Assembly (NCBI GenBank): GCA_003990765.1
Contig: RBNJ01000130.1
Coordinates: forward strand, 1-39,925
Source: Jimgerdemannia flammicorona
Taxonomy: Eukaryota
Length of the DNA stretch: 39,925 nucleotides
Direction: 5' to 3'
Shown: positions 16,701 through 39,925 of the stretch, piece by piece
Position numbering within the stretch: position 1 is the first letter of the stretch
How the letters are laid out: each line of letters begins with the position of its first letter
The notes under the pieces: generated by a model
What the model was told of the DNA's origin: nothing
The model's database searches: none
Seen by the model: the letters and a program-made list of their open reading frames with translations, nothing else
Position numbers and translations under genes: made by a program

Positions 16701-18535
16701 TCTTATACTGTATAGCTGATAGTGTTGCAATCTGGATCTTACTCATGATCTTGTCTGTCTTAATCATAATATTGGCTCTATCTTAAAGTAGGGTGACTTA
16801 ATTCTTATACCAATCAATGTCTGGATTTTATTTCATAAGCCAGGGTTTTCCTAAGATTAGATCATGATCTCCTAATAATATAATCTCAAAGTCTACTCAT
16901 TTCCAATATTTCTGAATCTTGATAGACAGTTTTGTGGCAATTGACTTAATGGGGTGCAGAGTACCATCTGCAGTAACTATACTATTATTCTTGAGTACAG
17001 GCTTGGTAAGGATCTTGAGGTTTTTGATGAGATTCTAATTCTGATTGATGAAGTTCCCTGCAGCTCTGCTGTCTATGAGTATTTGAACTTCTTTTCCTTT
17101 GACTAGGCCTTTGAAAATGAGCATAGCTTGAGCTTGATTTTCACAAAGATTTGCTGCTTGATTAGTGCTACCAAAATCCTTTTGATCTCATTTGGTTTCA
17201 GAGAGTTCTTGGACTTCTGTAATCTTGAGTTGACTGGCTTTTTCCAGGATCATTTGCATGACTCAGTCTCCTTCTTTAACTGTGTAGTCTTGATCCTTCT
17301 GGTTGACAAGCAAGACTTGAACTTGTTCTTGAAAGTCTGGGTCAATGACACCAATGTCTACATCTAAATGATGTTTGATACTGAGTTCTGATTGCAGTAC
17401 AATTCTAGTATAATGTCCTTCAGAACATTGGACTGCAATTCCAGTAGGCACCAGAGTACAGCCCTTGACTGGAATAGTGATTTGTTTGACTGAGTGTAGA
17501 TCAAGACCAATGACTTCTTCTGTTTAATATTGAGAAACCTGGACCTTTGGATGAAGCTTCTTGACCTTAAGTTGACTAGTAGTGAAATTGACAGGTATGT
17601 TCTTGGACAATATGGTGACTGGTCTTGAGGGTTTGCTAGTCTTCCTAGAATATTTGGTTACAATGTGTCCTGTTTGGTAACAGAAGAAATAAGCTCTAGA
17701 TTTCTTCAGACAGTCCTTTTCTTCAGGGGTGAGCTTGGTATTCTTTTTATTCATAGTGTCTATATCCATTGATACCAGGCCAACTGTCCTTGGTTGATTT
17801 CTGTGATGGTTCTTGAAGTAGTTCTTTTTGTAGTATTCTGATTCAAAGTGGTTGTCAAAGATAATGATATCAAATCTATTGGTAATTCTCATGGCTTCAT
17901 CAAGAGTTTTGGACTCTTTTAGCTTAATCTTGACTTATGTATTTCTCTTCAGACCTTGGATATAGCAGTCTATCTTTTCATCCTCAGATACTGCTGGTAG
18001 TTTAAGTAGGATTGACAAGAATTGTGCATTATAGCTTTGTATAGACTTAAGTTACTTGACATTTGCTAGCTTGTCCCTGGCTAGCTTTGTGGCATTAGTA
18101 GGCTTGAACTGCTTGTGAAGAACTCTCTTGAAAGCTTCCTAATCTCTAATTTATGCATATGAGTGTACAGATATAACCATGATATAATTATGCCACCAGA
18201 TAGCTACATTTCCTCAGAGAAGTGTGGTGGCAAATTGGACTTACATATCATCTTCCATTCTTGTGAGCTCGAAGTATTTGGAAGGTCCATGTATCTGTAG
18301 ATAGTCCTCCTTGATGGCTATCAAAGATATCTGGCTTGAGTGGCTTGAAACTGACTATTACTACAGCAGGATGTAATGTTCTTATAGTTTGTGTTTTCTG
18401 ATATTCTAGTTGTGCTTTGAGTTCTTGAATTTGGTGGGCCATGGCATTGATCATATCTTCTATATTAAGCTGCAATTCTCCTACTTCTTCTATAGTAGAG
18501 GGGTCTGGCTGGTAGACTGTCTCTTTGTAGCTCAT
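13780..18535 (-). pseudogene. gag-pol relic of element B
   Basis: Knuckle relic YFFCYQTGHIVTKY; PR ILIDSRAAGNFI; RT LLVYLDDILIFS; RNase H TTDVSNFAI...HEKKLLAIIYAL; integrase EHHNSSLASHLG...YYWPNM; chromodomain YEAEKILDK...YLVK*MGY...*EPLVNL (13780-13922). Many transition-derived stops. Confidence 0.95.
17200..17570 (-). pseudogene. dUTPase domain of element B (between gag and protease)
   Basis: LKVKKLHP...GLDL...VPTGIAVQ...GVIDPDFQEQVQVLLVN...VKEGD, matching trimeric dUTPase motifs 1-4. Confidence 0.9.
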
Positions 18536-18625
18536 TTCGAATTTATGTGACTAGTTGTAATTGGTTTCCAAATTCATGTGAGATTTCTTAATAAGACAAG
18601 ATATAATGACACTACTGCTACCAAG

Positions 18626-19090
18626 TGTAATAGTTCTAGTTTCTTTAAGAGAAAGCAGCTAAATCTGGAAGTTCTGATTGGCCTAAAGTAGCTCAAAGAG
18701 ATACTTAAAGGTTCAAGTATTCTTGAAGGATTTCTGAGAGAAAATATTCTGAGCTTTATTCAGGCAGAGAACAAGAATATTTATATATAATCTGAAAGAA
18801 AGATCCAGAAGGATCTTGGAAAGAAAGAGAAATGCCAAAAAATAGATTCTCAGCAAAGCTGACAAATACTATTCTACAATGTTCCAAAAGATTCTATAAC
18901 TAGCTGAGACAAGATACTTGGTACTAAGGAAAGACAAGAATGTTCTAGTGGTGTCTGGGCACCAAGAGAAGGTTTCTAAGCAAGTAGAAGATACTGGAAC
19001 ATAGTAGAATATTTAAGAAATAATAAGAAAAGACTGACTAAAAGATACAAAAAATATACTAAGACTAAATATAACTGTGAAATTTTTACA
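18626..19090 (-). repeat. 5' LTR of element B
   Basis: Direct repeat of 12983-13447, adjacent to the PBS. Confidence 0.95.
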
Positions 19091-19887
19091 ATAGTTTAGA
19101 CATTATACTATAGAATATAATAATAGAAAAAATAACTAAAGAGATTAGAAACCACTCAACTAGAAAAATGTAATATAGTATAAAAGACTAAATCCTAATC
19201 TGAAAAAGATTATAAAAAAAACAACAGTAAAGACTATAGTAATTTAGACTTATATCTTACTAAGATTAACTTTAGAAAAATAGTCTACTCTATAGAGAAA
19301 AGAAAGGTAAACAAAAACAGACCAGTCAGAAGGCAGAAAAGGAGAATTGTTTAGAAAGAAGAAACTAAAGATCAGATTGATATACTCTCTCATTCTCTTT
19401 TATCTTTTATCTCTAGAATTGATGAACTGCTGTTAAGATCTGTAGATAAAGAAATAAAGCAAGAGAAATAAGAGTAAGTTTATTTCAAACCCTAAGAAAA
19501 AATATATCTGAAAGATTATACCCTAAGATATTTATAATAAAGTATGAAAAAAAAATTCAAGAAGTCAAGACAGAGATCTCTCTCTTATAGTTCTTATAAT
19601 TAATATCTATAAAACAAACTATTGAAGACCACTAGATATAGTATAGACTAAGTCTTAATTCTATAGTAAGAACTAATACTAATTACTATCCAAGTTATAG
19701 AGAGATATGTATATTAATATCTATCTATATTGAAATATTAATAGATAAAGGTAAAAATTCTCATTAATATAAAAGTAGCTATCTATATCATTATAAAAAG
19801 ATTTCTAGATATTCTCTAGTGGCCCATTGATGGGCCATCTAATCTCAGTATCATAGTAGTAGATAGAGCTTGAACTCAGTTCTTAGG

Positions 19888-21762
19888 TATAAGTATATAA
19901 TCTTCAAGTCATCAAAATTACACATTACCCTCAGAACAAATTCAGAAATCACATATAAGATTACAAAGCTGAGTCAAACTGAAGTTACAGATCATGAAGC
20001 TAAGTCAACTTAAAGTCATAAAATATAAGATATATAGAAATAGAATCTTACTAATTAGAACTAAAAGTATATATGCTGAATATATAATATATTAAAACAA
20101 AGAACTATAACAAACTAAAATCACAATCATAACTCTCAAATATATACTCAGATATGACTACTGAAGTCTATAACTATATCTATGCTAATATTTAGAATAC
20201 TTTTATCAACTGAGCCAAAGTACCTCTACTTTTTATAAATATCCATAGTCTAGTACCTCTCTATTTTATAGAAGTATAATAGAATGCCCATGCCCTAAAT
20301 ATGCTTAGTAAGGCTTACTGAATTAGACAAATCTCAAGCTACTACTAGATCAGCCATCTCTTGAAAGATATAGTTAACCACTATCATGATATAGATATTA
20401 CTAAAATATTACAATACTAGAAACTTATTATTTATAAATACTGAGAACTTTTCTATAAGTATAGCATCTTTATCTTCTGTCTCCAAGTTACTATTACTGA
20501 AATAGTTACTATTCTGACCTATAGCCAAATCAACAATATGGTACAAAAACTTGACTACAAATATATTGAGTATACCCAAACTACCAACAGACCCTTTCTA
20601 TACTCAGATAACTATATTCTGCAAATATCTTAAGTGGGAAATATCATAAAGGATATTTATAATATAATCCAGTTTGATAATAATGAAGCAAAAGACAATA
20701 ATCTCTCTGATACAGATATGACCTCTAGCTAAGAATCTCTGCCAACTCTAATTATTTTGCCAATCTTATTAATGAACTTATAATAGTTCATAACTGACTA
20801 TAAGACTTATTAGAATAATAACTACTAGTATAAATACTAATCTGTATTTATATCTAACTACTTCAACTATAAAAAAGAAATAGAAGAATATAATCTATAT
20901 CTCCAGACAACTCTTAAGATAGAATCAATGACCCTACTTTCTGAATATGAGTGATATGAAGAACAACTATCAGTCTACTATAACTCTACAATATATAATA
21001 CCATAATCTACTAAGGTATACAGATAGTGAATCTGATGAAAGTGAAGATGAAACACCTCTTCTCTATTCATTAATACTATATCTAGTATATACATATATA
21101 AAACTAATGAGGCTATTCTATAAAATGACAACTTTGTTCCAATATACTACTATATGAATAAATAGAGAGATATAATCCAAAAACTGCTCTTCTAGATAAC
21201 TACTTCATTAGAGATAATGTCATCAATAGTAATCTCATTGAAGAGTATCTAGATAGTTTTCTATTAGTATAAATATCCTCTCCCCCAGACCTCAGAAATT
21301 TAGACAAGAATACTGATAAGAATCAGATAAATACTTTCTCATATAAATATCTCTTCCACACTACTCTTAGTATTAACTAATAGTAATATCATAAATAGTA
21401 AATAAACCTATTTAATAATCTACAAACTACTCTTAAATAAATCTACACTATATTAGGTCTCACTTCTAAATAGATCCAGAAATTTCCTAATTGAGTATTG
21501 TTTATAATAATATATCAATTTAACTAAGCTGGTCTTAGTTTCTTAAACTCTCTGAAATAAGAAAATTCTGAATATCTAGAACAAGTCTGAAAAGGACTTT
21601 GGTTGAGATATCAACTCGATCTTAAAATCAATAAGTATAGAGGATATACTCTATATAAAATTGATCTTGATCTTAAGAAAATAGTCTTTTAAAATATCCA
21701 GAACTTCCAGAAATACTCTCTCAGAACTATATAACAGTACTCTAATAAAGTACTTTCTTATA
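19888..21762 (+). repeat. 5' LTR of element C (1875 bp), containing a relic of the U3 ORF from 20154
   Basis: Colinear with 32624-34662. Termini TATAAG...CTTATA are transition-mutated TGTAAG...CTTACA. Confidence 0.9.
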
Positions 21763-23099
21763 ACTTAATAGTAGTAGTTTATAATTCAATTCTACTTCAA
21801 GATACTTCCTCATCTAGCTATAACTCTCTGTAGAAATTTCTATAAGTTAGTATAAAGGCCAACTACTGAACTGGAATTTATTCTGAACTATTTGACAATT
21901 AGAAGTAAATTAAACCTGATATATAAGAATAATTAGATCTCTATATTTGCAACAAGTAGAATAAGCTTCATATATAAAGAAGTACTCTAATTAAATTAGC
22001 ATATAGATAAAACTCTATATACCAAACTTCTTATTCTATATCCCACAAGTCAAGATAAAGAAGGTCTTATAGAAGCCTTCTTTACTCTTCTCAATAAGAG
22101 TTATATAAGCTCTACAAATTTAAGTAATCTAGGACAACTAGCAGTTATCTTTCTAGCCTTAGTTCTTTATAAAGCCCAAGACTCTATAGCCAAGTAGCTT
22201 ATCTCTACTGACTCTCACTATACTAGGACCAAGACTGCTCTATACTACTATTTCCAAAATTGCAAGACCTGCTATATTCTTAAAGAAGAAGTCAGAAAAA
22301 CCCTTTATCAACAATCAGACCCTGAGTCAAAAGCAGGCTCAGTTAGAACCTTACCTAAATCTGAAACTGAACTGAAACCTAATCTCAAAGAAGCTTTTGA
22401 TATAAGCCTATCTAAAATCCAATATATATTAGATACTATTTACTTTAATACTAAATAAACCCAGCTATATAAAGATCAAAATAAAAAAGAGGAGGAGTAT
22501 CTTACTAAATTCAATCTCAGATATACTATTAAAAAAGACACATATATCTATCTTAGGACAAAATATATCTATAAAACAACAGATAGTTATCTATCAGACC
22601 CTTATATCAGATTCATAATAGTTATACTAATAACTTATATAAATCCAGAGAATACTATCACACTCTACACTAGTATCTCAAGTCATATCAGTAACCTCAT
22701 TATTAGTAGTTCAGCTATCTCTTATAAATAATATAGTAAACTAATAAATTCTAAACCTCATAGCTCAGATAGCTATTATAGTAGCTACTATTACTATCTT
22801 AGCTAAACAGACCTGGCTAACTAAAAGCCTGAGTCTACCTATCTTTAATAGTATTATATAAGAAGTCCAAAACTTCATTAGTATAATAGATATCAATTTT
22901 GAAGCTAATTAATAGACCAATGAGTGAGTTATTGACTATCTTCTGATAAATAACTAAGACTATACTATCAAATAACTCTTTACTACTACTATAGCTTATG
23001 TTTACTAAGTTGTTATATTCTTTCAGAGACCTGCTAAAGAATAGTGTCAAACTCTTCCAGAAAAACTTCTTATATAGAATATCTGCCCTATAGTCATTG

Positions 23100-26000
23100 C
23101 TCAAAATGCAGCCAATAATACCTCTAGATAGAGACTACCCTGTAGCTCCTAGACTCAAACAACTCAATATTATAGTGAAATCCTGATTGCTGAAACCTAA
23201 GTAAAACTCTACAACCTCAAATTTGATATATGTATATAGTAAGGAGGAATTTGAAACCTTCTATACAAAACTCAAGTCACTCCTGAACACTATTGGCCTA
23301 GAATATATTATTAATAATAAATTATGAAATAATATAAGAGTAGACTATTTATTCAATATACTACCAGAATAGTTCACAAAAAAGATCTGAGAACAAAGAT
23401 ATTCTATTAGTTATAATTATCAACAATTATGTCTGGCTAGAATCAAAACTATTGTCAAGTAAATTCTAACAGCTGGATCAATTTTATCTCAAAAACAATT
23501 TCATAATAAGAAAAAATTATGAACTAAGAAAGAAGAACTCAAGCATGAATCATCTAGAGCTTCAGCTACATCTACTTCTTAGATATCTTGAAATTCTGAA
23601 TCTATCCAGCCAAGTATCTTTAAAAAACTCACTAAAGGAGAAAGAAATAAACTCAAAAGAAGTAGAGTATATTTCTATTATCAAAAGATAGGAAATATAA
23701 ATAGTGTCTGTCCAAATTGGAAGCTCTAAATAACAATATAAGCAACTGTTACTACTCTGTACCACCTCAACAATCTGACTACTAGACACTAGACTTTATT
23801 AAGTTAAGAACAATAGCTATAGTCTCAATCAAAGAAAGTCAAAAAAACAGCTAAATATAATCTATATATAGCTAAAGAAACTATTGTTTTCAATCAAGTT
23901 AAGTAAGTCTATATAGGAATTAGCATTCAAATTCTCAAAGAACATATTGGAAGGATATACTATTATAGCAGCCTAGTATTAAAAGGACTCTCAGTAGAAG
24001 GAGGAGTCATAGATAAAGACTATATAGGCAAAATCATTATTCTCATCAGAAACTATAGTTAGATATCATTTAAGATCTCTATCGATATTATATTATTTAG
24101 ATACTATTTGAGAAAATTGAATCAACTCTGGCAGTCAAGGAAGTTCCCAAACTATCTGAGGATCCAAAGGGTTTGACTTATCAAATAAAGCCCTAGAACA
24201 ACTTACTATAAATAAGGAGGAATAATTCTATAGAAAAATAGAAGACAGATTCATATCTAGTGGCCAATATCCTCATGGTATTGAAATATATTTTTTCCAA
24301 ATAATAGATGATTACTTCTCTTGTATCAATGAGTTAGTCTAATAAAGAGCTAATAGAAAGAAACCTCTGATAACTGAAATCATTACTATTGGATCAGACA
24401 AACTACTTACTCTATAAGTTTTTATTAATTGAGCCTCTGTTAAGATTATAATAGACAGTAGTGCCTCAGGTAATTTTATCAATAAAGAAATAGCCAATAG
24501 ACTTAAAGTCCTGATCTCTTTAGTATAATAAACTCAAATAGTTGCTATAGCTGATAAAATCTCTTATATAATTAGTAAGGAAGTCTACAACCTATCCTTC
24601 AGAATTGGTAACTATTGAGTATATATTATCCTCTAAATAGTACTACTTCTAGATAATGAGATTATCTATGGGATACTATGGTTAAAATAAGAAAACCCCA
24701 TAATAGATTGAATGAATCATTCTCTGACTATTAAGAAAGGATACCATAATTTTAAACAGTAAGATAAAAGGGACCCACTCAGCTTTAGCAACCTAGGCTC
24801 AAAGATAATTTATATTAATAAACTATAACTCAAGAAATTAGTAAAGAAATGCTCTCTCTTTGCTATCTCTATATATCTATCTAAAGAAGAACTTAAGAAT
24901 CTCAAAGAAAACTTTTTCAAAGTTGACATTTATATCAGACTTCTACTCTAGAAATTTTGAGACATATTCCTAAAAAAACTTCCAAAAATACTATTACCCA
25001 AACAAGTAGTTGACCATGTGATCAAAATCATTTTAGATATCAAATCAGTCTTTAAGTCAATCTATTATATATCTCTTAGAGAAATTGATATACTTAAGAA
25101 AAAAAATTGATGAACTTCTAGAATAAGAATTTATTAGACCTAGTATATTACTATATAGTATACTAGTTCTCTTTGTTGTTAAGAAAGGAGAAGATCTATA
25201 AATATATATTGATTACTGAGACCTTAATAAATAGACCATTAAGAACTATTGCCCACTATTCTAAATTAATGAAATATTCAATAGGCTTATTAATCTACCA
25301 TTTATAAGCTCTTTTGATCTATAAAATAGCTATTGACAAATTGCCATAAAAGAAGAAGATATCTACAAAACTACTTTCTGAACTTGCTATAGACATTTTG
25401 AGTTTCTAGTTATATTCTTTGGTTTAACTAATATTCCTGCAACCTTCCAGGCTCTGATGAATACTATCCTATATCTATACTTAGATAAATTTGTTATCTA
25501 TATTAATAATATTTTGGTCTTCAGCAAAACTTTGGAGAAATATCTCAAATATCTTGAACTAGTACTACTGAAACTCTGAGAAAACTAACTCTTTATAAAA
25601 CTCAGCAAATGTGAATTCTTTCTAAAGGAAATTTAATTTTTTTGTATATATTATTACTCTCAATAGAATCAAGATAGACTCTAGCAAAATCTTTATAATT
25701 AAGAAATAGCTCAGACTCAAGAATCTGAAGACCTTCAGTCATTCCTAAGATTAGTAAACTATTATAAGTAATTCATTATGAACTTTACTAAGATCATTAC
25801 TACTCTTATCCAACTGATCAAGTATAGTAAAAAAAAAAGGACAACTCTGGACTACAAAGTAAGAGAAAGACTTTAACAATCTTGCTAAATGGGGACCTAA
25901 ATAAGATATAGCCTTTTAAGCTCAGAAAGATATCCTGATAACTACTTCAGTACTTCAAGTAGTAAATTTTGTCCTACTATATAAAGTTATTATCAATACC

Positions 26001-27835
26001 TCTGATCTAGCCATTAGAGCAATACTTATACAAGAAGAACACTTTGTGGCCTATTATTTTTACAAGTTTAATGATGCTAAAAGAAACTATATCATCTATA
26101 AGAAGGAAATGTTAGCCATCATAGACACTCTGATTATAGTATTTATATCTTGAAGAAGTATACTTTACCATATTAATAGACTATAAATTATTGATCAACA
26201 TCAAGACCCAGACTACTCTTTTCTAAAAGTAAGCCAGATGAATAAAAGTTCTTGTCAATTCTAACTATAAAATCCAATATGGCCCTAATAAGAAAAATAT
26301 TATTACTGATATAATCTCTAGATGACTATTCAAAGAAATCATACAGATCCTCACTCTGGTTATCAATTCTATTATAGAATAAATTATCATAGTATATACT
26401 AATGATAAAGAAGCTCAAGTACTTTAATTCTGAATAGTAATAATATCAACAAGTATCCCCAGTATCATCAATACTAATTGAAGGACAATACTATCTATTA
26501 TAAGAATAGATTATATATTTCTAACAATTGAGACCTCTGAAGGGCTATCCTATTTGAATATTATAATACTCCTATAGTTAGATATCTAGAATTTGACAAA
26601 TACTATGATATTATTTTCCAAAACTTCTATTAGCCCTATATGGCAGACTAGTTAAAGATCTAATCACTTCTCATAATACCTGCTAATACAATAAGTTCTC
26701 AACTCTAGCAAAATCTGGACTACTCTACTCTATTTCAGTACTATCTGCTAATTAGAAACAAATCTCTATAGACTTCATTGTATAACTACTCTGGACTAAG
26801 AACAGAAGATACAATTATTATCTTTATAGACTATCTTAGCAAAGAAACTCACTTCATACTTACTACTATATCTGCAATAGTACCTAAAATTGCTATACTC
26901 TTATTTGATAACATTTTCTTCTATCATAGTCTTCCTAAGATCATTGTTAGTAACTAAGATCCAATATTTAATAGTTACTTTTAGAAAGCTCTATACTCAT
27001 ATCTTAGAATGAAACTATAATATCTATAGTCTTTCACCTAAAAACTAATAGCCAAACTGAAAGGATGAATAGAACTCAAAAATAAATACTAAGAAACTAT
27101 GTTTTCTATTAATAGAATAATTGGTATAAATATCTTACTACAGTTGAGTTATCTATAATAATAGCAAATAAGCTTTTTTTAAAATATTTCTATTTTTTAC
27201 CAATATAGAGCAAACTCCAAACATTCTCCTAACTCTTATCAGAACTATAGCTGAACTCTCTACTATTGAAACCATTGAGGAATTCTTACTCTAAATATAC
27301 AACCTGAGCAAAATTATAATTGAGAACCTATTTTGAGCTCAAAATCGACATTCTTAGTATATTATTCAATATTATTGAAAAGAAACTTTTGATATTAATG
27401 AAAAGATTCTACTGAATATTCAAGGATACCAAGTTGATAATCTCAAGTACAGACCCTCTATAAAGCCAAACAGTAAGTTCATTGGATCATTTGAAGTCAT
27501 TATGTAAGATTCTCTAATATCTTACAAACTAGTCCTACTAGACACTATCAAGATTCACCTAGTCTTCAATATATAATATCTTAAGAGATATAATAATAAA
27601 AATAATGATGAACTATTTCCAAATTAAACTATAAAATCACTAGTACCTGTCATTATTAATAATTAAGAAGAATATGAAGTTGAGATAAATCTCAATAAAT
27701 ATAGCCATAAGAACTACTCTGAATATCTAGTCAAATGGAAAGGTTATCTAATTTATAATACTATATGGGAACTCAGAACAAATCTCCAGAATATCACCAA
27801 CTTGGTTCAGAAATATGACTCTTTAAACAACTAGT
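23100..27835 (+). pseudogene. gag-dUTPase-PR-RT-RH-IN-chromodomain relic of element C
   Basis: Knuckle relic VYFYYQKIGNINSVCP (~23670-23715); PR IIIDSSASGNFI (~24445); RT YINNILVFS (from YIDD, 25501); chromodomain EEYEVE...EYLVKWKGY...IWE (27667-27830). The gag start is uncertain. Confidence 0.9.
23800..24185 (+). pseudogene. dUTPase domain of element C (between gag and protease)
   Basis: GISIQI...GRI...SSLVLKGLSVEGGVIDKDYIGKIIILIRN plus a motif-5 relic (tgaggatccaaagggttt, from RGSKGF). Confidence 0.88.
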
Positions 27836-28291
27836 CAAACTACTCTGATATCTACTACTACTATACTATATATATTATACTTATAAATACTGTTAAAAGT
27901 ACTCTTATAATTATTATGAGCAAAATTGAAGACTCTACTATATCTTAGCAAAATAAGACAAAAGAAATACTATCTTTCTAGAAAAATAGCAAAATGAAAG
28001 TCAGTCTATTCTCCCTATATCATTGATGAGAAATAAGATATAGATATTTAAGAAGATTCCTTAAAGGAAATTCTCTAGCAGTAAAAATCATTAGAATCAC
28101 TTCCAGTACATAGTATCAAATATATGACCCTTTAATATATGAATTTAATACATTAGACAACTATACTATAAGTATATCACTTTTTGAGAAAAAAGAATAT
28201 TACTAGGCTTTTGACTATCCAAAGGATATAATAACACTAGACCAAATTAGATGACCTTAATGAGGATATCAAAAACTAAAAAGGAGAGAGT

Positions 28292-29167
28292 TATAAGTAT
28301 ATAACCTCTAAGCTACTAAAATTATATATTGCTCTTAGAACAAATCTACAAATTATATAAGATCATAAAACTGAGTTAAATCAAAGTTACAGATTATGAA
28401 GCTGAGTTAACTCAAAGTTACAGAATATAAGATATATTGAAATAAAATCTTACTAATCAGAACTGAAAGTATATATACTGAATATATAATATGTTAAAAT
28501 AAAAAACCACAATAAACCAAAATTACAACTACAACTCTCAAACATATATCTAGATATGACCACTGAAGTCTATAACTATATCTGTGCTAATATTTGAAAT
28601 ATCATTATCAACTGAGTCACAGTATTTTTATCTTTTGTAAATATCCATAGTCTAGCACTTCTCTATTTTATGGAAGTATAATAGAATACTCTGAATATAC
28701 TTAGTAAGACTTACTAAATCTGATAAATATCAAGCTACTATCAGATTAGCTATCTTCTGGAAGATATGATTAACCACTACTATGATATAGATATTACTAA
28801 AATATTATAACACCAGAAATATATTATCTGCAAATACTAAGAACTCTTCTATGAGTATAGCATCTTTATCTCTCACCTCTGAGTTACTACTACTGAAATG
28901 ATTGCTATTCTAATCTATGGCCAAATTGATGATATAGTATAAGAACTCAATTACAAATATATCAAGTATATCTAAACTTCTTGTACCCAAATGACTATAT
29001 TCTACAAATATGTTAAGTAGGATATACTATGAAGAATATCTATAATATAATTCAGTTTGATAATAATGAAGCAAAAGATAACAATTACTCTGATACAGAC
29101 ATAACCTCCAGCCAAGAATCTCTACCAACCCTGATCACTCTGCCAATTTTATCAATAAACTTCATAA
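28292..29167 (+). repeat. Truncated 3' LTR of element C
   Basis: Matches 19888 onward and 32624 onward up to the equivalent of ~33500, then similarity stops abruptly. Confidence 0.88.
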
Positions 29168-29823
29168 CTATCTATAAGTGTATATTTTATTTGTAATAGA
29201 AAAAAGATCTCATAATACAAGTTGTAATTAGTTATAAAAATTAAATCATGAGTATTCATATTGATTTCAGATATATCAAAGCTAGACAAAGCCACTTTTC
29301 TTAATTAGTTATCTATCTATCAAAGTGATTTATAACTTGATAAGCTGAGAGTCAGAATACTATTTCTTTAATAATATATATTTAGTATATTTAATACTAT
29401 TTAAAATAATCATATCAAAAATAAAAAGTATTTTAGTTTCAGTATTTCTGAAAGTACTAAGTATTCTCTTATTCTATCTATTCAATATTTATATATATAC
29501 TATAAGATACTCTTTATAAGCCTGTGGACTATTGTACAGAAGACTGTTTATTATAAAAAAAAAAAGTATTTAGTTCTCTCAATTAGGTATTTTGGTTAAT
29601 GTTGTACATATTTTCAATTTTATTTTCTTCAAATAATTATTTTGATTGAGAGCCATTAGGTGATTTTTTTGTTTATTTATTATTATAGATTTCTTTTAGT
29701 CCAAAAAGCCATTACATTCCACCTTGATCCAAAAGAACAAATTTCTTATTAGAAAAAGTTCTAGTATTAATATCTTATATTATAATTAATAATAAACAAA
29801 GGAGAATTGTAAATATTATTTAT

Positions 29824-30289
29824 TATAATGTAGCAGATGCTTACTCTTAAAAGTATGTTGGATTTCTGTATCTTGAAAACTTGATCTTCTCTGACTCCTC
29901 AGAGTCCTTTGAGTTGCAGGGGAGGGTGGATGAGTTCGAAGTGTATCTGCCTGCAGTCTTACTAGTTCCTTTGCTATCTCTTTGCTTTGAACTATTTTGA
30001 TCTGAGGTTTATTCACTCAAAGATACTGGGTTATTTATACAAGTTTGCTAGCTATGAGATAGTTACTAGGTTACATGGCTAGGTTATGAGTTATTTAACA
30101 CTTTGCTAAATATTTCACCAGTTGCGAAATGCTATACTATATCAAGAAGCTCAATCTCACACTTTGCAAAATATTTAGCAAATGGTGGAATTGAGGACTG
30201 CTAACTATGTGGCTATACTACTTTGGGACTGGGTGCGATCAAGTATCTATTCCCTATTTCCTTCATTCAAATCTGGCTATATCATCACA
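29824..30289 (-). repeat. 3' LTR of element D
   Basis: Direct repeat of 38095-38560, adjacent to the PPT. Confidence 0.95.
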
Positions 30290-30326
30290 ACTTCCTCCTA
30301 AATAGATGATCTCATCTCTGAAGCAT

Positions 30327-30788
30327 CTATTCAAACTCCCAAGCTTCAATGGTCTGTATGGTCTTGTATTGTGCGATTTGTTGCATTACTGTTTCCCAAT
30401 GGTGTCACCTGACTCGGTCGAAGTCTGAGGGAGTCACTCCTCACAGGTGGGCTAGTGCTGATTCATCCTCTCAGAATAGCTTGTGGATTCTCTTAGCAAT
30501 AATGATCTGGGAATAGGAGAGCTGGCATTCTGCAATCCAATTCTCTTTAGTCATTTCTGGGTCTTGGTTGAGTACTTGGCCAAGTTTGAAGTACTCTTGG
30601 AATTTATTTCGATGCTGATAGGTCTTGAAGTGTGAGATCTGAGAGAGATGAGTCTGTATGATGCTTTGGATACTGTCATAAGACTCCTCTATGGTTGGAG
30701 GCTTGGTGGTGCACCATTGTCTCTTGATGGCTCTTTGGGCAGTGCTGGTGATCTTGAGTGCCATTGCAGTACTTTTGTTACTGGCCAT
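30327..30788 (-). pseudogene. 153-codon accessory ORF of unknown function downstream of integrase (element D)
   Basis: The ATG overlaps the pol end (CATGGCCAGTAA). The frame continues past three TGA codons to ...IEAWEFE*. Same length and frame as 39260-39721. Confidence 0.8.
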
Positions 30789-32623
30789 GATATTTCTTGA
30801 GTCAGTTTCGGTAAATAGTAGTGGGGATTATTATGTCTGAGGGTTTTCGTAGCCAAAAGGTGGTCCCTTTTATATCTTGCACAAAATAAGGTCCTTCCCA
30901 CTTGGGCTCCAGTTTTCGTGACCATGAAGCTTTAACTATATTCTGATACACCAGAACTTTGTCTCCTATCTTGATAATCTCCAAGGGTTTATGGGTCTTT
31001 TCTGCATTCCTCCATTGTAGTATCTGCACCTTGATTATGTAATCCTCAGCCTTCTTCCTGATTTGGTGTAGTCTCCATATTTCCATGTCCATGCATTTAC
31101 ATATAGCATCTCCATTGGATGATAGGGTTCCCTGAGAACATTCTTCTCTGAACAGCATTTCTCGAGGGGTAAAGTGGGTACTTTGTGATTGGATATCCCG
31201 GAGAGCAGATAATGCTATTGGCAGATAGTGCTCCCAGTTCTCATAGTTATCACAGATCTTGGCAATAATATTTTTGAGGGTTTTGTTGGTCCTTTCTACT
31301 TGTCCATTTCCTTGAGAGTGATATGCTGTAGTCCAAATATGCTAGATCTTATACTTCTTGTAGAGAACTTCAAAGAACTGGTTTACGAATTCTGTTCCTC
31401 TATCTGTAGTTACTTGTGTGGGGGTCTTGAACCAGCAGATGATTTCCTTGTGGAAGAAATTGGTGATTGACTGTGCATTGGCTTCCATAAGGGGTCCTGC
31501 TTCTATCCATTTTATAAAAAGGTCTATAATGACAATGATGTATTGGTTGCCAGTCAAAGTCAAGGGTAGAGGGCTGATTATATCCATTGCAATGTGGGTG
31601 AATGGTACTAGTTCTATGTATGCTGATCCTGGGGCTTGATTTCATTGGTCTTGTTTCTGTTTCTGGCATTTGTTATAGATATTAATGAATTGTCTGATAT
31701 CTTCCTCCATCCCTGGCCACCATATTGTTCTTCTTGCCTTGTCATATGTGTTCATTCCTCCTAGATGGCCAAGTTCATGTACTAATTTCATTGCTTGCTC
31801 CTTCTTATGTTCTGGTATGACTAGTAGTTTTCCTTTCTTCAGTGTTTCTCCATCAGTTTCGAATTGTTTCCATATTCTGTTAATAATTGTTTGTGTCCAT
31901 TCTTCCAGATGTTGGAGCATCTTTCGCTATCCCAGGTATGTGATAATTCCATAGTAGAGCTCCTTATTCATGATGATTTTGTGGGGGTGGGGTCCTTCGG
32001 GGTGTCCGTGAGAGGGCATTGGCATTGGTATTGGTTCTTCCAGAGTGGTGTATAATGGTTACATCATAAGCTTGTAACTTCATTATTCATCTGGCATAGA
32101 TTCCTTTGGGTTGTCTAGTTGTCAGTAGCTAGGTGAGAGCTGAGTGGTCTATTTGGATGGTGAAGTGTCTTCCAGCCAAGTAGTAGTGGAACTTTTCTAC
32201 AGCCCAGATGACTGTGAGGCATTCCAACTTATAGGATTCATATTCTTTTTCAGCTCCTCGGGTTCTGCAGCTGAGGTATGTGATGATATACTCCACTTTA
32301 TCTTTCTTTTGAGCTAGGACTGCTCCTAGTTCTTGTGCACTTGCATCAGTCTGTAGGATGAATTCTTGAGTCCAGTCAGGTCTTCTGAGGATAAGTGCCT
32401 GGGTCAGTCTGACCTTGAGTTCATCAAATGCTTTTTGTTGTCTGCCAGTCCACTGGAACTTGGTATCCTTCTTATTAAGTTTATTGATTGGTCCTGTAAT
32501 ATTGGAGAATCCTCTAATAAATCTGCGATAGTAGGAGGTAAGTCCTATAAAGGCTTGAGCTTCTATAACAGTGGTGGGCCTTGGGTATACTGCTACCACT
32601 TGTATCTTGAGGGGGTCTGTGTG

Positions 32624-34662
32624 TGTAAGTGCACAACCTCCAAGCCACCGAAATTACATGTGACCTCCAAACAAATCTGGAAATCACCTGCTCGATCACG
32701 AAGCTGAGTCAAACCAAAGTCACAGTGCACAAAGCTGAGTCAATACGAAGTCACAGAACACAAGATCTACACAAACGGAATCTTACCAATCAGGACCAAA
32801 TGCATATATACTGAGCACTGAGACATGTCAAAACAGAGAACCAAAACAACATCAACTATAAACTTCCAAACACACAAACATGACCACTGAGATCTACAAC
32901 TGTATCCGTGCTGACATTTGGAATGCCATTGTCAACCGAGCCACACCCCCTCTGCCCCTCATGAATATCCATAGCCTGGCACCCCTCTACTTCGTGGAAG
33001 CCCGATGGAACACCCTGAACATGCTTAGCGAGGCCCACTGAATCAGACAAATCTCAAGCTACTATCAGATCGGCCGCCTCTTAGAAGATATGGTCGAACA
33101 CCACTATGATACAGACATTACCCAGATGTCTCAACACCAGAAGCTCATCACCCGCAAACATCGAGAACTCTTCTATGAGTATAACACCTTTATTCTCCGC
33201 CTCCGAGTCACTACCAGCGAAATGGTTGCTACCCTGTCCTATGGCCAAATCGATAACATAATACAAGAACTCAACCACAAGTACCTCAAATATGTCCAGA
33301 CCACAGACAGAAGCTTCCCGCACCCTGATGACCATATCCTGCAAATGCCTCAAGTCGGATATGCCATGAAGGACATCTATGATATAATCCACTTTGATGA
33401 AGATGAAGCGGAAGACAATAATCCCTCTGATGCCGACATGACCTCTAGCCAAGGATCTCTGCCAACCCTGATCACTCCGCCAACCTTGCCAATGAACTTA
33501 CAACAGTTCATAACAGCATATGAGACTTATTGGGACAATGACCACTAGCATGAATACCAACCCGCATTCACCCCCGACTACTTCAACTACAATGAAGAGA
33601 CCAGAGAATACAACCTGTACCTCCAGACAACCCTCAAGATTGAACCAACCACTCTACTACCTGAGTATGAGCGACATGAACCACAGCCGCCAGCTTACTA
33701 CAATCCTGCAACTCATAGTGCTGTAACCTATAGAAGGTATGCAGACAGTGAATCCAATGAAAGCAAAAACAATACACCCCTCCTTCGCCCACCAACACCT
33801 TATCCAGTGTACGAGACAGACGATGCTATTCTGTGGGACAGAGATGAAGTTCCAATGTATTATTATCTCAGCAAACAAGGAGAAGTAATCCACGAACCAC
33901 TATTCCTAAACGATTACTTCATCAGAGATGATGCAATCGATGGTGATGTCATTGAGGACTACCCAGATAGTACCTAAATCTATAAATAGCCTAGCAGTTA
34001 TAATATAGTTAGATTAGCATTGTACGACGTGACTGTGAACTGACTCAGCAGTCAGATGATCTCTTGACATGTCAGATCACACTTGTACTATGTGACTGCA
34101 TTCCAACTCAGCAAGGCACTTAGTGCTACATCTATATTTAGCATAGTCCAGATAGCTCCTCACTAGTATAAATACCCCCTCCCTCAGACCTCAGAATCTC
34201 AGACTTGAACAGACTCAAAACACAAGAATATTCCTGAATACTTCCCCACAATATCCCTTCACACAACTACTCCTAGTATAGCAATATCATGAATAGTGAA
34301 TAAACCTATTTAATAACCCACAAATCACTCTTAAGTAAATCTGCTCCCTGTTAGGTCCTACTCCTAACTCCATCACGAAATTTCCTAATTGGGTATTGTC
34401 TGCAGCGATACGCCAATTCAACTAAGCTGGTCTTAGTTTCTTGAACTTCCTGAAATATGGAAAATCCTGAACATTCAGAACTAGTCCGAAAAAGGACTTT
34501 GGTTGAGACGTCAACCCGATCTTGAAATCAATAAGTATAGAGGACATACTCCATACGAAATTGATCTTGACTATAAGAAAATGGTCTTCCAGAATATCCA
34601 GAACTTCCAGAAAACCCTTTCAGAACTACGTAATGGTTACCCTAAAAAGCAACCCTCTTACA
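32624..34662 (+). mobile_element. Solo LTR of family C (2039 bp), lightly mutated
   Basis: TGTAAG...CTTACA termini and a perfect 5-bp TSD gtgtg (32619-32623, 34663-34667). Removing it restores D pol (LGHIIN*DGTHT-DPLKIQVV). TATAAATA at ~34168, AATAAA at ~34299. Confidence 0.95.
32880..33977 (+). pseudogene. LTR(U3)-encoded ~365-aa protein of unknown function, with two premature stops
   Basis: Single frame from ATG 32880 to TAA 33977, broken only by TGA 33039 and TAG 33546, each one C>T from a sense codon. Includes track ORF 33090..33548. Relics are present in both LTRs of element C. Confidence 0.85.
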
Positions 34663-35514
34663 GTGTGTGTTCCATCTCAATTGATAATATGGCCAAGATA
34701 GGAGATCTTGATTTCTGCAAACTTGCACTTTTTGGGTTTGATGTAAAGGTCATGTTGTCTTAGTCTCTCCATTATCTGCTGTATGTGCTACAGATGTTCC
34801 TCAGGTGTCTTGCTGTAGATAATTATATCATCGACATAGACCATCATCCATCTTCCTATATCATAGTGAAAGATTTTGTTCATCATTCGCTGGAAACTTA
34901 CTGGTGCATTGCATATTCCAAATGGTATTCGTAGGTAGACATAGGTTCTATCTGGAGTGATGAAAGCTGACTTTTCACTTGCTATATCTGTGAGTCCGAT
35001 TTGGTAGAATCCTGAGTATAAGTCCAAAGTGCTGTAGTACTGTACTTCATCTCCTAGTATTATGAGGATATCATTGATGAGGGGCAGTGGTTGGCAATCC
35101 TTCTTGGTAACCACATTGAGCTTTCTGTAGTCAACACAGAGTCTTGGGGCGAATTCTCCAGGCTTACTACCTTTTTTCAGGGCTAGTATAACAGGTGAGG
35201 ACCAGGGGCTGCTGGCTTCTTTAATAATGCCAGCTTCTTCCATCTGCTTGATTTCTTCTCTAAGCCATTCTTGGTAGACTGGTGGGACAGATCTTGTCTT
35301 CTGATAAATTGGTTCGGTGTCTCCAGTATCTACTTTATGATAGTAGTGTGGGGTCTTTCCTTTGATGTCCTTGAAATCTGTGGCAAGGACATCTTCGAAT
35401 TTGTGGAGTATTTTCTTGAGTTCTTTCTTAAGTGGAAATTTATTTCCAATGGTGTAGCTGTGCTTACTTGTGTTTTCCTCCTTTTTATGCTTGAGTTCGG
35501 TGATCTTGGTGCTA

Positions 35515-35950
35515 GTGAATACTCCTCTTCCTGTGGATCCAAATTCTTTCTTTCCTCTTTTCGTTTCCTCCAGCTTCTTAACTTCTATGATCTTTGGTTG
35601 TAGGATCGAAAATATCAACATTTGCGCTAATCAGTCCTTCTTCTTGACTGGAAATGGAATTGTAGGATTGTGATTCCTAGCAATGAGTAGAATTTCTCCA
35701 GTATAGTCTGAATCAATAACTCCTCCTTCAATTGTGATTTTGCTTCTAGCCAGGCTGCTTCTTGTCTTGAGAATCCCAACATAATCCTTTGGGATGGTCA
35801 TCTCCAGTCCAGTTACAAGTAGGGTAGTTGTCTGGGGTTTCAGTACAGTCTCTTCTACTGTAGTGATGTCCATTCCGGCTGCATTTTCTGACTTGTATTC
35901 TGGCAAGACTGCATCAGGGTAAATCTTTCGAATCTTGATCTTGATTTCTT
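35515..35950 (-). pseudogene. dUTPase domain of element D (between protease and RT)
   Basis: AAGMDI...TGLEMTIPKDYVGILKTRSSLA...EGGVIDSDYTGEILLI...RGKKEFGSTG (motifs 1-5). Confidence 0.95.
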
Positions 35951-38094
35951 CTTCATCATCACTGTCCTCCAGGAGGGCTGGTAGTTCATCATCTTCCTTC
36001 TTCTCTTCTTCCCTGATCTGTTTTTCGAGAGCTTTCTGCCTTCTTTCCTGGTGGATCTTCTTGATTCTGATGGTGCACTGGTAGCAATCATTGACATGCT
36101 CCATACAGTACATCTTGATCCCATGAGGACAGACTCTTTGTGGGGCATAATCTTCTGTGATCTTCTTGTACCATTCTTCTTTACTTATCTATCCAACTTT
36201 CTTCTTCTTTGGAGTAGTCACCATATAAGCTTCCTCTTGCTCACTCTCTTCTTCCTCCATGTTGGGCAGGACTCCTTTGTTGATATTGATGAGAATTCGT
36301 ATCTTCTGTCCCCAGTAGGTGATCTGCATCTTCTGGGCATTGAGATCAATTACTGCCTTGGCTTTGTGAAGCCATTGATTGCCAATGAGAATGTCATAGT
36401 TGGTGGCATTGGTTACAATTACATCTACTGGGATGGTTGCTCCTCCAATCTTGATGGGAATATCTCGGATCTTTCCCAGAGGTGTGGCTCTTGTACCATT
36501 GGCTGTGATGAACACCAGCTTAGTTGCTTCTTCCACATCCCAACCTAGGTGGTCTGCTGCCTTCTTGCTGAGGAGACATCCTCCTGCTCCTGTATCAATA
36601 ATGGCTTCAAAGATTCTATCTTCGATTTGGCATATTGCATAAGCAGAGGTTTTGTAATTATCCTCACTTTCTTCTCCTGAGTCCTCTTGAATGTTATTGG
36701 CCTCAGTTATCTTCCATCCTTGTTTCTTAGTTATTTTGGCAAGTCCAAACCTCATTTGCTGTCTAAATGTTGGGATTTCTGTGAGCTGACCAAAGGTTGC
36801 ATTGACCTTTTGTTGACTGAGGTCCTTGAAGATATCATACTTGAAGGTCTTGGTCTTGCAAAGCTTCTTTTCTTTTTCTCCTTCACTGGCTGGAGTGGTT
36901 CCTTGGATAATATCTTGAACTACTTGTTCCAGCTCTATATCTTGGTCTGTCTCTTCAGCTTGGCTTTCAGTGGCTATTTCTATCTGCTTTTCTACTGAGT
37001 TCTTCTTGGGTCTTCCTGATGATCTCTTGTAGAGTTCTTTGCAAACATTCTTCTTGGTAGTCTGAGCAGGATAGGCCTCCCATTCTTCTTTATCAGAATC
37101 TCCAATTTTCTCGAAGGTAATTATATTAGCCTGCTCCTTGTTTTATATAGCATTACTTGGTTGAGCCTTATACTTGGTTTCGCTCATGCATTCATAGGAG
37201 TAGTGGCCTTCTTCTCTGCAAGTATAGCAGGTGCCTTTCCTCTTGTCTAAGATGGCAGCAAACTTCTGGACAGGGTGGCAGTCTCTTCCTTGAATTTCCT
37301 TTATCACATCTCCCAGGTGAGCAGTCATTTCGGTGAACCTTTTGGCAAGTTTCTCTATTGGATTGCTGTTCTTTTGCTACTCCATAGCTTTTGGCTGAGG
37401 TGTGTTTTGATTGATCATTATGGGTATCTTGATTCTGACTCCTGTGACCCTTTTCATTGTGTAGTCTTATGGATGTCTGGCTATCCAGTATCACTGAGCA
37501 TAGGTAACCTTCTGTAGCAGATCCAGAATCACTGGTGATGAGCGGATGGCCATAGCTATTTCTGGATAGACTCCTTTCATGAAGGTTGCTTTGGCTACTT
37601 GATCTCGGATAGCAGCAGCATAATCTGCAAGGATTATCTGATATCAAATTCTGATATAGAATGTGTTTGGACCCTCGCTTATTCCTTGGTATGTTGTGTT
37701 GAGCTGATCCTTCAGGACTTGCTTGATCTCATCTGTATAATATGTATTTCAGAGCCAGGTCTTCTGTGCTGTCAGTATAGTATCGGCATCATTTTCTGCA
37801 TAGGTTGTGGCTGTGAATGCTGCTCTGGCAGGACCTCGTAGGCTGAAGAGCATGAGGGCTACTTGCTGTGCTGCTGTCAGGGTCCTTATAGTAGCATACT
37901 GCTCAAAATTGTCAATGAAGGTGATGATTGATTTGTCTGAGGTATACATATCTGTGGAATACTGGTGGTCTCATATCCATCTTGTCTGGGTATTGGGGCT
38001 CAGTTTGTATGGTTGTTCAGGTAGGGGTGGTTGTTTGTTGTTTAGCTTGAAAGTGAGGAATTCATCTTGAATCACCAGCCAATGGGCACTAAGT

Positions 38095-38560
38095 TGTAAC
38101 ATAGCGAATGCTTACTCTTGAAAGTACATCGGATTTCTGTATCTTGAAAACTTGATCTTCTTTGACTCCTCAGAGTCCTTTGAGTTGCAGGGGAGGGTGG
38201 ATGAGTTCGAAGTATATCTGCCCACAGGCTTACTAGTTCCTTTGCTATCTCTTTACTTTGAACTATTTCGATCTGAGGTTTATTCACTTGAAGATACTGG
38301 GTTATTTATATAAGTTTGCTAGCTATGAGATAGTTACTGGGTTACATGGCTAGGTTATGAGTCATTTAACACTTTGCTAAATATTTCACCAGTTGCGAAA
38401 TGCTATACTATATCAAGAAGCTCAATCTCGCACTTTGCGAAATATTTAGCAAATGGCAGAATCGAGGACTGCTAACTATGTGGCTATACTACTTTGAGAC
38501 TAGGTGCAATCAAGTGTCTATTCCCTATTTCCTTCATCCAAATCTGGCTATACCATCATA
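38095..38560 (-). repeat. 5' LTR of element D
   Basis: Direct repeat of 29824-30289. Minus-strand TATAAATA at ~38303-38310 and AATAAA at ~38279-38284. Confidence 0.95.
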
Positions 38561-38745
38561 CTATACTATTCTGAACTTTACTACTTTTCATTTGTATTGT
38601 CCACTTAGACTACTTTGGCTTACTTCTCCATTCTTACTATCCATTCTCTATATAGGACAATATATGATATTCTTGAAGTTTTCTTTAATAATTAGTATTG
38701 AAATTTCTATTATTTTGATATCTCAATAATGTGGCTTATACATAT

Positions 38746-39925
38746 TGTAACATAGCAGATGCTTACTCTTGAAAGTACGTCGGATTTCTGTATCTTGAAA
38801 ACTTGACTGTTCTGACTCTCACAGAGTCTCTGGAAGTGGCAGGGGAGGGTGGGTGAGTTTGAAGTGTATCTGCCCGCAGGCTTACTAGTTTCTTTGCTAT
38901 CTCTTTGCTTTGAACTATTTCAATCTGAGGTTTATTCACTCAAAGATACTGGGTTATTTATACAAGTTTGCTAGCTATGAGAGGGTGGCTAAGTAATAAA
39001 TGAGTCATTTGGACTTTGTCGAAACATTTGGACAATGTTTAAACGCTATACTAAATCGGGGTATCCGATTTGGATAATGTCTAAAATTTAGATGATGTCT
39101 AAGAAATTTAGACAATGTCGAAATCGAGGACTGCTAACTATAATGCTATAGTACTTTGGGAATGGGTGCGATCAAGTGTCTATTCCCTATTTCCTTCTTC
39201 CAAATCTGGCTGTACTGTCACAACTTCCTCCTGAATAGATGGTCTCGTCCCTGAGGCATCTATTCAAACTCCCAGGCTTCAATGGTCTGTATGGTCTTAT
39301 ACTGTGCGATTTGCTGCATGACTGTTTCCCAATAATGTCTTCTCACTTTCTCGAAGTCAGTAGGGGTTACTCCTCTCAGGTGGTCTATCACTGCTTCATC
39401 TTCTCAGAATAACTTGTGGATCCTTTTGGCAATAGTGATCTGTGAGTGGGATAGTTGACACTCGGCAATCCAGTCCTCTTTGGTCTTTGCTGGATCCTGA
39501 TTGAGCACCTGTCCAAGCTTGAAGTACTCTTGGAATTCTGCGCGATACTGATAGGCTCTAAAGTGCGAGATCCGAGAGAGATGAGTCTGCATAATACTCT
39601 GAATATCCTCATAGAATGGCTCTATGGTCGGAGGCTCGGTGGTGTGCCATTGTCTTTCGATGGCTCTTTGGGCAGCACTAGTGATCTTGAGTACCATCGC
39701 AGTACTTTTGTTACTGGCCATGGTATTTCTTGAGTCAGTTTCAGTGAATGGTGGTGGAGATTATTGTGCCTGAGGGTTTTCATAGCCAAAAGGTGGTTCC
39801 TTTTATATCTTGCACAAGGTAAGGTCCTTCCCACTTGGGCTCCAGTTTTCGTGACCATGAAGCTTCTACCATGTTCCGATACACCAGGACTTTGTCTCCT
39901 ATCTTGATAATCTCCAAGGGCTTGT
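38746..39925 (-). mobile_element. 3' end of Gypsy element E (sister subfamily of D); LTR at 38746-39222; runs off the window
   Basis: 477-bp TG...CA LTR similar to the D LTR except for a U3 block, PPT at 39223-39233, accessory ORF, and integrase C-terminus (KLEPKWEGPY). Confidence 0.93.
39260..39721 (-). pseudogene. 153-codon accessory ORF of element E (one internal TGA)
   Basis: MASNKSTAM...YFKLGQVL...AKRIHKLF*EDEAVIDHLRGVTPTDFEKVRRHYWETVMQQIAQYKTIQTIEAWEFE*. Many synonymous differences from the D copy. Confidence 0.85.

Follow-up and report, generated by a model that had tools for sequence, protein, structure and literature searches.

A decayed third gene behind the integrase of Ty3/gypsy retrotransposons in Jimgerdemannia flammicorona and its probable relationship to an ORF inside chromoviral LTRs

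The window, by which we mean the whole stretch of 39,925 nucleotides of Jimgerdemannia flammicorona DNA that was analysed, is a nested array of decayed Ty3/gypsy retrotransposons; between 18 and 30 kb it includes AT-rich stretches (GC 0.26-0.31). The elements considered here are referred to as C, D and E, and their features are listed in Table 1. In element E, Pfam searches of stop-to-stop ORFs identified PR, dUTPase, RT, RNaseH, integrase zinc finger and integrase core domains, and a gag-like ORF lies upstream of these pol domains. Between the integrase and the polypurine tract of E lies a further minus-strand reading frame, hereafter ORF3. A post-integrase ORF in both D and E had been proposed in a first-pass annotation made from the letters of the sequence; it is real, and a second copy is present in D, whose pol extends past the window end. 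The amino acid sequence that the annotation gave for E is actually that of the D copy.

Table 1. Coordinates of the retrotransposon features discussed in the text (positions in the window)
Feature	Position	Strand	Basis or remark
5' LTR of C, RIP-mutated	19887..21760	+	ORF copy at 20154-21257
C internal region: dUTPase, PR, RT, RNaseH, SH3_Tf2-1, Chromo	21761..28289	+	full of stops
3' LTR of C, truncated, RIP-mutated	28290..29187	+	polypurine tract directly upstream; ORF copy from 28556
3' LTR of E, 465 bp, 93% identical to 5' LTR	29823..30287	-	LTR comparison
Spacer with polypurine tract AGGAGGAAG, from ORF3 stop to 3' LTR of E	30288..30326	-	L001 laid out alike
ORF3 of element E, decayed, 153 codons + TAG	30327..30788	-	ATG at 30788, TAG at 30329-30327
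pol/ORF3 junction of E	30778..30804	-	comparison with L001 and L002
gag-PR-dUTPase-RT-RNaseH-IN of E	30805..37728	-	C solo LTR interrupts at 32624-34662
Solo LTR of chromovirus family C, 2039 bp	32624..34662	+	TGTAAG...CTTACA ends, GTGTG target-site duplication
C LTR ORF, 365 codons, two internal stops	32880..33977	+	solo LTR positions 257-1354 of 2039
5' LTR of E, 465 bp	38094..38558	-	LTR comparison
LTR of D	38745-39215		beside D ORF3 (39721-39260)
ORF3 of element D, one internal TGA (39404-39406)	39260..39721	-	second copy, 78% aa identity

Both copies of ORF3 in the window are broken, so nothing functional is encoded there now. The E copy contains three internal TGA codons (30471-30473, 30441-30443 and 30405-30407), and a TGA at codon 106 is common to D and E. 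Each internal stop of the two copies corresponds to Arg in intact relatives or in the other copy. There is no third copy of ORF3 in the window: a six-frame profile scan detected no ORF3-like sequence in a third dUTPase element (12983-19090) and none elsewhere in the whole window. The ORF3s of E and D are dead copies of a live family.

The coding nature of ORF3 was evident from the pattern of substitutions. The D and E copies differ at 86 of 462 nt, with 52 of the differences in third codon positions, in agreement with the many synonymous differences reported in the first-pass annotation. That annotation had suggested dN/dS as a check, taking a value near 1 to speak against its reading; the value obtained for D versus E was 0.10 (Nei-Gojobori; dS 1.03, dN 0.10). 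When the same DNA was analysed in the two wrong frames, the ratios were 1.23 and 1.36. The ratio was 0.10 for the part ahead of codon 106, where both copies have a TGA, and 0.09 for the part behind it, and comparison of the E copy with that of an intact relative, L001, gave 0.11. ORF3 is a genuine coding gene on which purifying selection acted strongly during the active life of the element.

Relatives were found outside the window. Of 13 candidates drawn from 5.8 billion proteins by a word-indexed search, eight were relatives at E ≤ 0.01, among them an intact protein of 153 aa, and a cluster look-up added P0022 as a second intact family member of this length. A profile search of 1.84 billion representatives yielded six matches at E ≤ 0.001, namely three of the close family, one distant relative (P0016, 165 aa, 28% identical to P0004) and two internally repetitive proteins, which we regarded as spurious. 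In the six-frame scan of the window, the family profile scored 270.8 bits against E and 265.6 bits against D. The core of the family reads F-Q-x-Y-x-x-G ... I-A-x-R-x-x-x-L-F, within a protein of ~150-165 aa.

A metagenome scan gave two loci, L001 and L002, from 136 pattern matches. L001 (6.5 kb) carries an element of the structure gag(CCHC)-PR-dUTPase-RT-RNaseH-IN-ORF3-PPT-LTR in which ORF3 is intact; its polypurine tract and LTR start are as in E, and its pol is 65-78% identical to that of E. In L002, the integrase preceding the P0016 ORF ends with the same KLEPKWEGPY module. Both of these intact relatives hold ORF3 in the same post-integrase position, and in E, D and L001 the gene follows directly after the integrase and ends ~40 nt before the polypurine tract and 3' LTR. 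Scans of viral contigs with both the D/E and the C alignments confirmed no relative. ORF3 represents a real, new and uncharacterised family of accessory genes, and element E, which carries it, is a dUTPase-bearing Ty3/gypsy element without a chromodomain.

The start of ORF3 had been described as an ATG overlapping the pol stop. For the family as a whole this is right; for D and E it is not strictly so. The first pol-frame stop of E is a TGA (30804-30802) located 13 nt upstream of the ORF3 ATG; this TGA is common to D and E, whereas L001 and L002 have Arg at that codon. Read beyond it, the pol of E ends at a TAA (30780-30778) within ORF3 codons 3-4. In L001, the ATG precedes the pol stop and the two frames overlap by 44 nt, and in L002 the P0016 ORF starts ~56 nt ahead of the integrase stop. 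Together with the overlap seen when D/E pol is read past its TGA, these overlaps indicate that an ORF3 start overlapping the end of pol is a family feature.

The pol of E is split between RT and RNaseH by a solo LTR of another family, C. The GTGTG duplication occupies 32619-32623 and 34663-34667, and the alignment of the pol of L001 with E is colinear as far as 34662, picking up again at 32626. The solo LTR is ~70-77% identical to two LTR-like stretches of C (19887-21748 and 28294-29162), which flank a 6.5-kb region. These LTR-like flanks, the retroelement domains and the polypurine tract indicate that C is a chromovirus with ~2-kb LTRs and that the insert in E is a solo C LTR. The Chromo match in C (8.6e-06) scored 26 bits against a cutoff of 25.1. 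The distinction drawn in the first-pass annotation between a chromoviral and a non-chromoviral Gypsy lineage was borne out: C has Chromo and SH3_Tf2-1, whereas Pfam gave no chromodomain match in E, nor in L001, and RT identity between E and C is only ~30%. Counted against the solo LTR, the copy of C that spans 19.9-29.2 kb has 466 substitutions; C>T and G>A changes make up 328 of them and fall mostly in CpA and CpG, which is a RIP-like mutation pattern.

Each of the three LTR copies of C (5', 3' and solo) contains an ORF in sense orientation, so its earlier placement inside the LTR was correct. The ORF is coding: in the solo copy, its own frame has two internal stops, whereas the two remaining sense frames have 14 and 34. 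Public data include an intact 128-aa N-terminal fragment (P0019) that is 89% identical to the C ORF and a 247-aa C-terminal fragment (P0012) that is 64% identical; at the two stop positions, these intact relatives have Arg and Trp. The non-RIP sequences of the C family comprised P0018 and P0019 for the N-terminal domain and P0012 for the C-terminal fragment. The N-terminal ~130 aa form the putative ORF3-like domain. The tail (residues 141-364) contains 44 D/E versus 12 K/R, together with 30 aromatic residues and 24 Pro in 223 residues. Within the solo LTR, TATA-like motifs were matched at 32805 and 32857, before the ORF, and at 33981 and 34167, after it; an AATAAA motif was matched at 34299. 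As motif matches, the TATA-like sequences after the ORF would fit a location of the ORF in U3.

We next consider the properties of the two proteins. The maximum 19-residue Kyte-Doolittle average was 0.19-0.86 in five proteins, with no transmembrane or signal-like stretch; this lack of a hydrophobic segment indicates that ORF3 is not env, as the first-pass annotation had argued. A match to an already characterised family had been named there as another check, and none was found in Pfam, PHROGs or PDB sequences. The only rows were sub-threshold, namely Cactin_mid (E 0.073), TBK1_ULD (E 0.016) and two PDB rows (E 1.1 and 1.6), and no HTH profile of Pfam matched, searching at E ≤ 10 having given just two unrelated sub-threshold rows. 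The AlphaFold2 model of ORF3 consisted of helices only, in line with the earlier description of the protein as helical, at a poor mean pLDDT of 49.9; the best-supported part was residues 71-100, which contain the conserved motifs. The model of the C ORF was likewise all-helical and poor (mean pLDDT 56.8). With these low-confidence models, Foldseek returned nothing at E ≤ 0.001 (best E 0.78 and 1.1), and HTH proteins (the VirB core and CENP-B) appeared at E 4-5 only. The most conserved helix is basic, rich in K, R and H, and carries the I-A-x-R-x-x-x-L-F motif, with the Y-x-x-G helix ahead of it; residues 1-105 of P0004 have a pI of 9.0. The C-terminus is acidic and aromatic, the last 33 residues of P0020 (136-168) containing 12 D/E, no K/R and six aromatic residues. 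ORF3 encodes a soluble protein, 153 aa long in intact relatives and all-helical by prediction. In the ESM Atlas, the ORF3 and C proteins had the same nearest neighbour, an unnamed 127-aa cluster (0.95 and 0.93), and three more neighbours in common, which were generic helical or phage-like clusters; recognition of P0019 was below threshold, and we counted this result as a lead only.

The first-pass annotation had proposed, by eye, that ORF3 is homologous to the protein encoded in the LTR of C. Our recount of the quoted 50-residue block agreed with its 12 ungapped identities. In Smith-Waterman comparisons, P0004 and P0019 scored 59, whereas shuffled sequences scored 29.5 ± 5.1 and 1 of 2000 reached 59; the observed score was reached by 6 of 2000 shuffles for P0020/P0019, 4 of 2000 for P0002/P0018 and 73 of 2000 for P0022/P0019. 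Pairwise alignments across three families fell in one register, and that of P0020 with P0019 ran from residue 1 through to the end. A D/E profile (an HMM from the 14-sequence D/E alignment) gave P0019 14.3 bits and P0018 14.1 bits, values reached by none of 3000 shuffles (best 10.2), while its top score among 177,635 distinct PDB sequences was 12.5 bits. In the six-frame scan of the window with this profile, the C ORF was the best non-self match (11.8 bits, E 0.004), the next reaching 4.4 bits. Using hhalign, the D/E alignment matched P0019 with P = 7e-4 (probability 26%, score 27.3); none of 220 shuffles reached this score (maximum 24.5), and the reversed sequence scored 13.5. A joint MAFFT alignment was colinear over the whole domain with few gaps and added a common A-I-x(4-6)-T-x-x-x-P motif located between helices 1 and 2. 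Helix order is alike in the ORF3 and C models, at mean pLDDT of only 49.9 and 56.8, and acidic, aromatic tails are found in both P0020 and the C ORF.

Other comparisons were negative. When the D/E alignment was compared by hhalign with a four-row C alignment, two rows of which were RIP-mutated, P was 0.081 and the probability 0.7%; the annotation's own check, a non-significant profile-profile alignment, thus came out against homology here but in its favour with P0019. The C profile did not recover the D/E proteins, placing P0004 at rank 26 of 2878 and P0022 at 201, with P0016 and P0020 in effect unranked, and in the reverse window scan the D ORF was the best non-self match but at E 0.53. BLASTP of D versus C gave E = 0.053. 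Identity between ORF3 and C is 19-26%, and the profiles are shallow (Neff 1.5-1.9). The claimed homology therefore passed four targeted tests and failed two, those against the four-row C alignment and with the reverse C profile. Judging from these comparisons, we consider it probable, short of proof, that ORF3 and the domain at the N-terminus of the C ORF are homologous.

The statement that the domain occupies different positions in the two lineages (REINTERPRETING) was overstated. At the 3' end of C, the chromodomain lies at ~27.7-27.8 kb, the LTR begins at ~28290 and the ORF at 28556, so the C ORF in the 3' LTR is also downstream of pol, and it precedes the likely end of the transcript. ORF3 and the C ORF thus occupy topologically the same place, 3' of pol. 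What does differ is the order of the parts. C has its polypurine tract, which sets the LTR boundary, ahead of the ORF, whereas in D/E the tract follows the ORF. We infer that the two are one kind of gene, an accessory gene 3' of pol, in which the ~130-aa ORF3 domain would correspond to the N-terminus of the 365-aa C ORF, followed there by a longer acidic, aromatic and proline-rich tail. In C, the plus-strand priming site would have come to lie upstream of the ORF, making the ORF part of U3; placed there, it would be duplicated in both LTRs and kept in solo LTRs. Inside the C LTR, no relic polypurine run of at least 10 nt was found, leaving the idea of a shifted priming site without direct support.

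A complete sense ORF within the U3 of an LTR, 3' of pol/env and duplicated in both LTRs, is known as sag from MMTV, a vertebrate retrovirus in which it encodes a type II membrane glycoprotein. The geometry of the C ORF is the same, a complete sense ORF inside the LTR copies, but there is no sequence relation, and the placement of the C ORF in U3 rather than R is putative. Tas/Bel1 of foamy viruses and similar retroviral transactivators are small 3' regulators encoded next to or overlapping U3, in which an acidic activation region comes after the part that binds nucleic acid. The likeness of ORF3 to Tas/Bel1 would be one of function only.

In a regulatory role, the basic helical domain of ORF3 would bind nucleic acid and its acidic, aromatic tail would recruit host machinery; a subgenomic or a spliced RNA would serve for translation, or the gene would have a promoter to itself. 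The trans-acting function suggested in the first-pass annotation is plausible by inference, and a transactivator-like protein acting in trans on the expression of its own element is possible, although we put this forward only tentatively. A wider proposal would make ORF3 the fungal counterpart of the 3' regulators of complex retroviruses, moved between chromoviral and non-chromoviral gypsy lineages and swallowed by U3 in C, so that every LTR, solo LTRs included, would be a self-contained regulator gene acting in trans; we regard this combination as rather improbable. Overall, we favour, with some reserve, the reading in which the E locus is a dead copy of a real third gene that is probably linked to the C ORF as the same kind of gene and that may have had a regulatory role.

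The resemblance between ORF3 and the C ORF could instead be a product of chance, or of convergence in two proteins that are both small, amphipathic and helical, in which case both ORFs would be real but share no domain. The pair was chosen by eye in a repeat-rich window and shuffled nulls lose helical periodicity; one of the four pairwise tests was weak, and the BLASTP value, the reverse profile search and the hhalign comparison with the RIP-contaminated C alignment all fell short. The forward profile score, however, beat all 3000 shuffles and the best of the 177,635 PDB sequences, the C ORF was the single outlier of the six-frame window scan, and one register serves to align C with two D/E subfamilies that are mutually 28% identical. 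The agreement extends to the acidic tail, the order of the helices and the offset at the N-terminus, and we consider a chance resemblance unlikely, if by no means negligible. If the domain is indeed shared, it may have been passed on by recent module exchange (recombination or capture) between co-resident lineages rather than by co-descent from a three-gene ancestor. The RTs of E and C are divergent, yet the ORF3-like domains of C and D/E (19-26% identity) are nearly as similar as P0016 and D/E (28%), for which the integrase C-termini agree far more closely (23 of 39 residues between the L002 element and D/E). This is a hint of exchange on thin evidence, since the comparison involves 39 integrase residues and a saturated similarity near the detection limit. 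Moreover, ORF3 of the close family evolves at about the pace of pol (72% versus 65-78%), and no intermediate sequence was found. We regard recent exchange as possible but less likely than not.

The function of ORF3 might also be post-transcriptional or directed against host defence, as an adaptor for RNA export or packaging or as a suppressor of silencing or RIP. A small helical protein with a basic core and an acidic tail suits many adaptor roles, and the host genome mutates these elements heavily. There is also a precedent in Cer1 of C. elegans, an LTR retrotransposon with a protein needed for nuclear export of its genomic RNA (PMC10309623). Nevertheless, no protein of this sort matched ORF3 in sequence or in fold, and nothing separates this reading from the transcriptional one; taken by itself it is a doubtful proposal, and the two kinds of role are about equally probable. 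By its site between pol and the 3' LTR, ORF3 resembles the env-like ORFs of other gypsy elements, and it could accordingly be viewed as an env remnant, or as a non-coding spacer open by chance. Against this stand the hydropathy (≤ 0.86), a dN/dS of 0.10 compared with 1.2-1.4 in other frames, and the existence of intact relatives. We rejected this explanation as extremely improbable, dN/dS and hydropathy having already refuted it.

Extra genes have been reported in other LTR retrotransposons. Some fungal gypsy elements are drawn with 'additional ORFs of unknown function', and the dUTPase occupies variable pol positions in fungal Ty3/gypsy elements (Novikova et al. 2010, PMC2864245). These elements resemble ours in being fungal Ty3/gypsy elements with an extra ORF besides gag/pol, some with a dUTPase, but for such ORFs the available text of the paper describes neither a sequence family nor a test of selection nor a comparison across lineages, and its supplement may list a comparable one. 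In bdelloid rotifers, the same type of ORF3 occurs in unrelated LTR retrotransposon lineages (Rodriguez, Kenefick & Arkhipova 2017, PMC5408684). There, too, the third ORF follows pol, often in dUTPase-bearing lineages; the rotifer proteins can be identified as enzymes or as env-like (GDSL lipase, DEDDy exonuclease, paramyxovirus-type fusion protein), whereas ours is small and helical and belongs to no known family. The brtn gene of Boty-like elements of Botrytis cinerea is likewise an extra gene in a fungal gypsy element (Zhao et al. 2011, cited in PMC8365987), but it is described there as antisense, while ORF3 and the C ORF are in sense with pol. A literature search of openly accessible papers found no account of the ORF3 family and no LTR-borne ORF in a fungal retrotransposon.

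Extra genes of LTR retrotransposons show how simple elements gain regulatory complexity of the retroviral kind. To our knowledge, those of fungal LTR retrotransposons are almost unstudied. The present work defines an unnamed protein family that is rare (six matches at E ≤ 0.001 among 1.84 billion representatives), restricted to elements and under selection. Should the link to C fail, an ordinary uncharacterised ORF3 remains. If it holds, a single accessory domain is at work in two gypsy lineages with an RT identity of only ~30%, a move of the plus-strand priming site would have placed a formerly 3' gene within the LTR, so that it persists in solo LTRs, and ORF3 would offer a concrete protein for testing trans-regulation of fungal retrotransposons. 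If the regulator reading is true as well, each solo LTR would be a regulator gene scattered in the host genome and able to act on other copies.

Two in-frame TGA codons, one at the end of pol and one at codon 106 of the post-integrase gene ORF3, are common to E, a Ty3/gypsy element, and D, the second copy of its family. Relatives have arginine at both positions, and purifying selection persists downstream of each. Read-through of these stops may account for the shared codons. At two other positions, E carries TGA and D carries AGA, which makes parallel CpG decay the simple reading of the shared codons.

The pol gene of E is interrupted between RT and RNaseH by a 2039-bp solo LTR of the chromovirus family C. 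Its termini are TGTAAG...CTTACA, it is surrounded by a perfect 5-bp target duplication (GTGTG), and it retains a nearly open 365-codon ORF. Using this solo LTR as the reference, 328 of the 466 substitutions in the element C copy were C>T or G>A. The proportion of sites mutated was 64% for CpG, 49% for CpA, 37% for CpC, and 17% for CpT. The GC content of element C has fallen to 0.26–0.30. E and the solo LTR, which lie nearby, were spared (GC 0.40–0.45). The hypermutation of element C is RIP-like.

Between the truncated C 3′ LTR and the E LTR, 29188–29822 belongs to neither element. Within it, 29499–29649 is 72% identical to 8342–8493, and another repeat family is therefore present. The left end of the window holds a direct repeat of ~375 bp (1–374 and 1240–1600; 78% identity) with a spacing of 1.24 kb. 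In L001, a 6.5-kb metagenomic locus related to E, the LTR start (6396–6479) consists of a tandem 18-nt unit (GCAGATGTAGAGATCTTA), with copies reaching the contig end.

The 465-bp LTRs of a third gypsy element share 92% identity and have TG...CA ends. The element has near-identical flanks (ATAGC/ATAGT) and contains dUTPase, RT, RNaseH, and integrase zinc finger domains. Its RT and that of E share about 29% identity, and no ORF3-like sequence was found in this element.

Positions of features in the window
Feature	Position	Strand
Pol-end TGA, E	30802–30804	
Pol-end TGA, D	corresponding pol-end codon	
ORF3 codon 106 TGA, E	30471–30473	
ORF3 codon 106 TGA, D	39404–39406	
C solo LTR, including target duplication	32619–34667	
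Element C	19887–29187	plus
Third gypsy element	12983–19090	minus
dUTPase, E	35634–36188	
dUTPase, C	~23835–24078	
dUTPase, third element	17266–17523	

E, C, and the third element represent deeply diverged gypsy lineages within one window. All three carry a dUTPase, and its placement differs, lying between PR and RT in E and L001 and ahead of PR in C.
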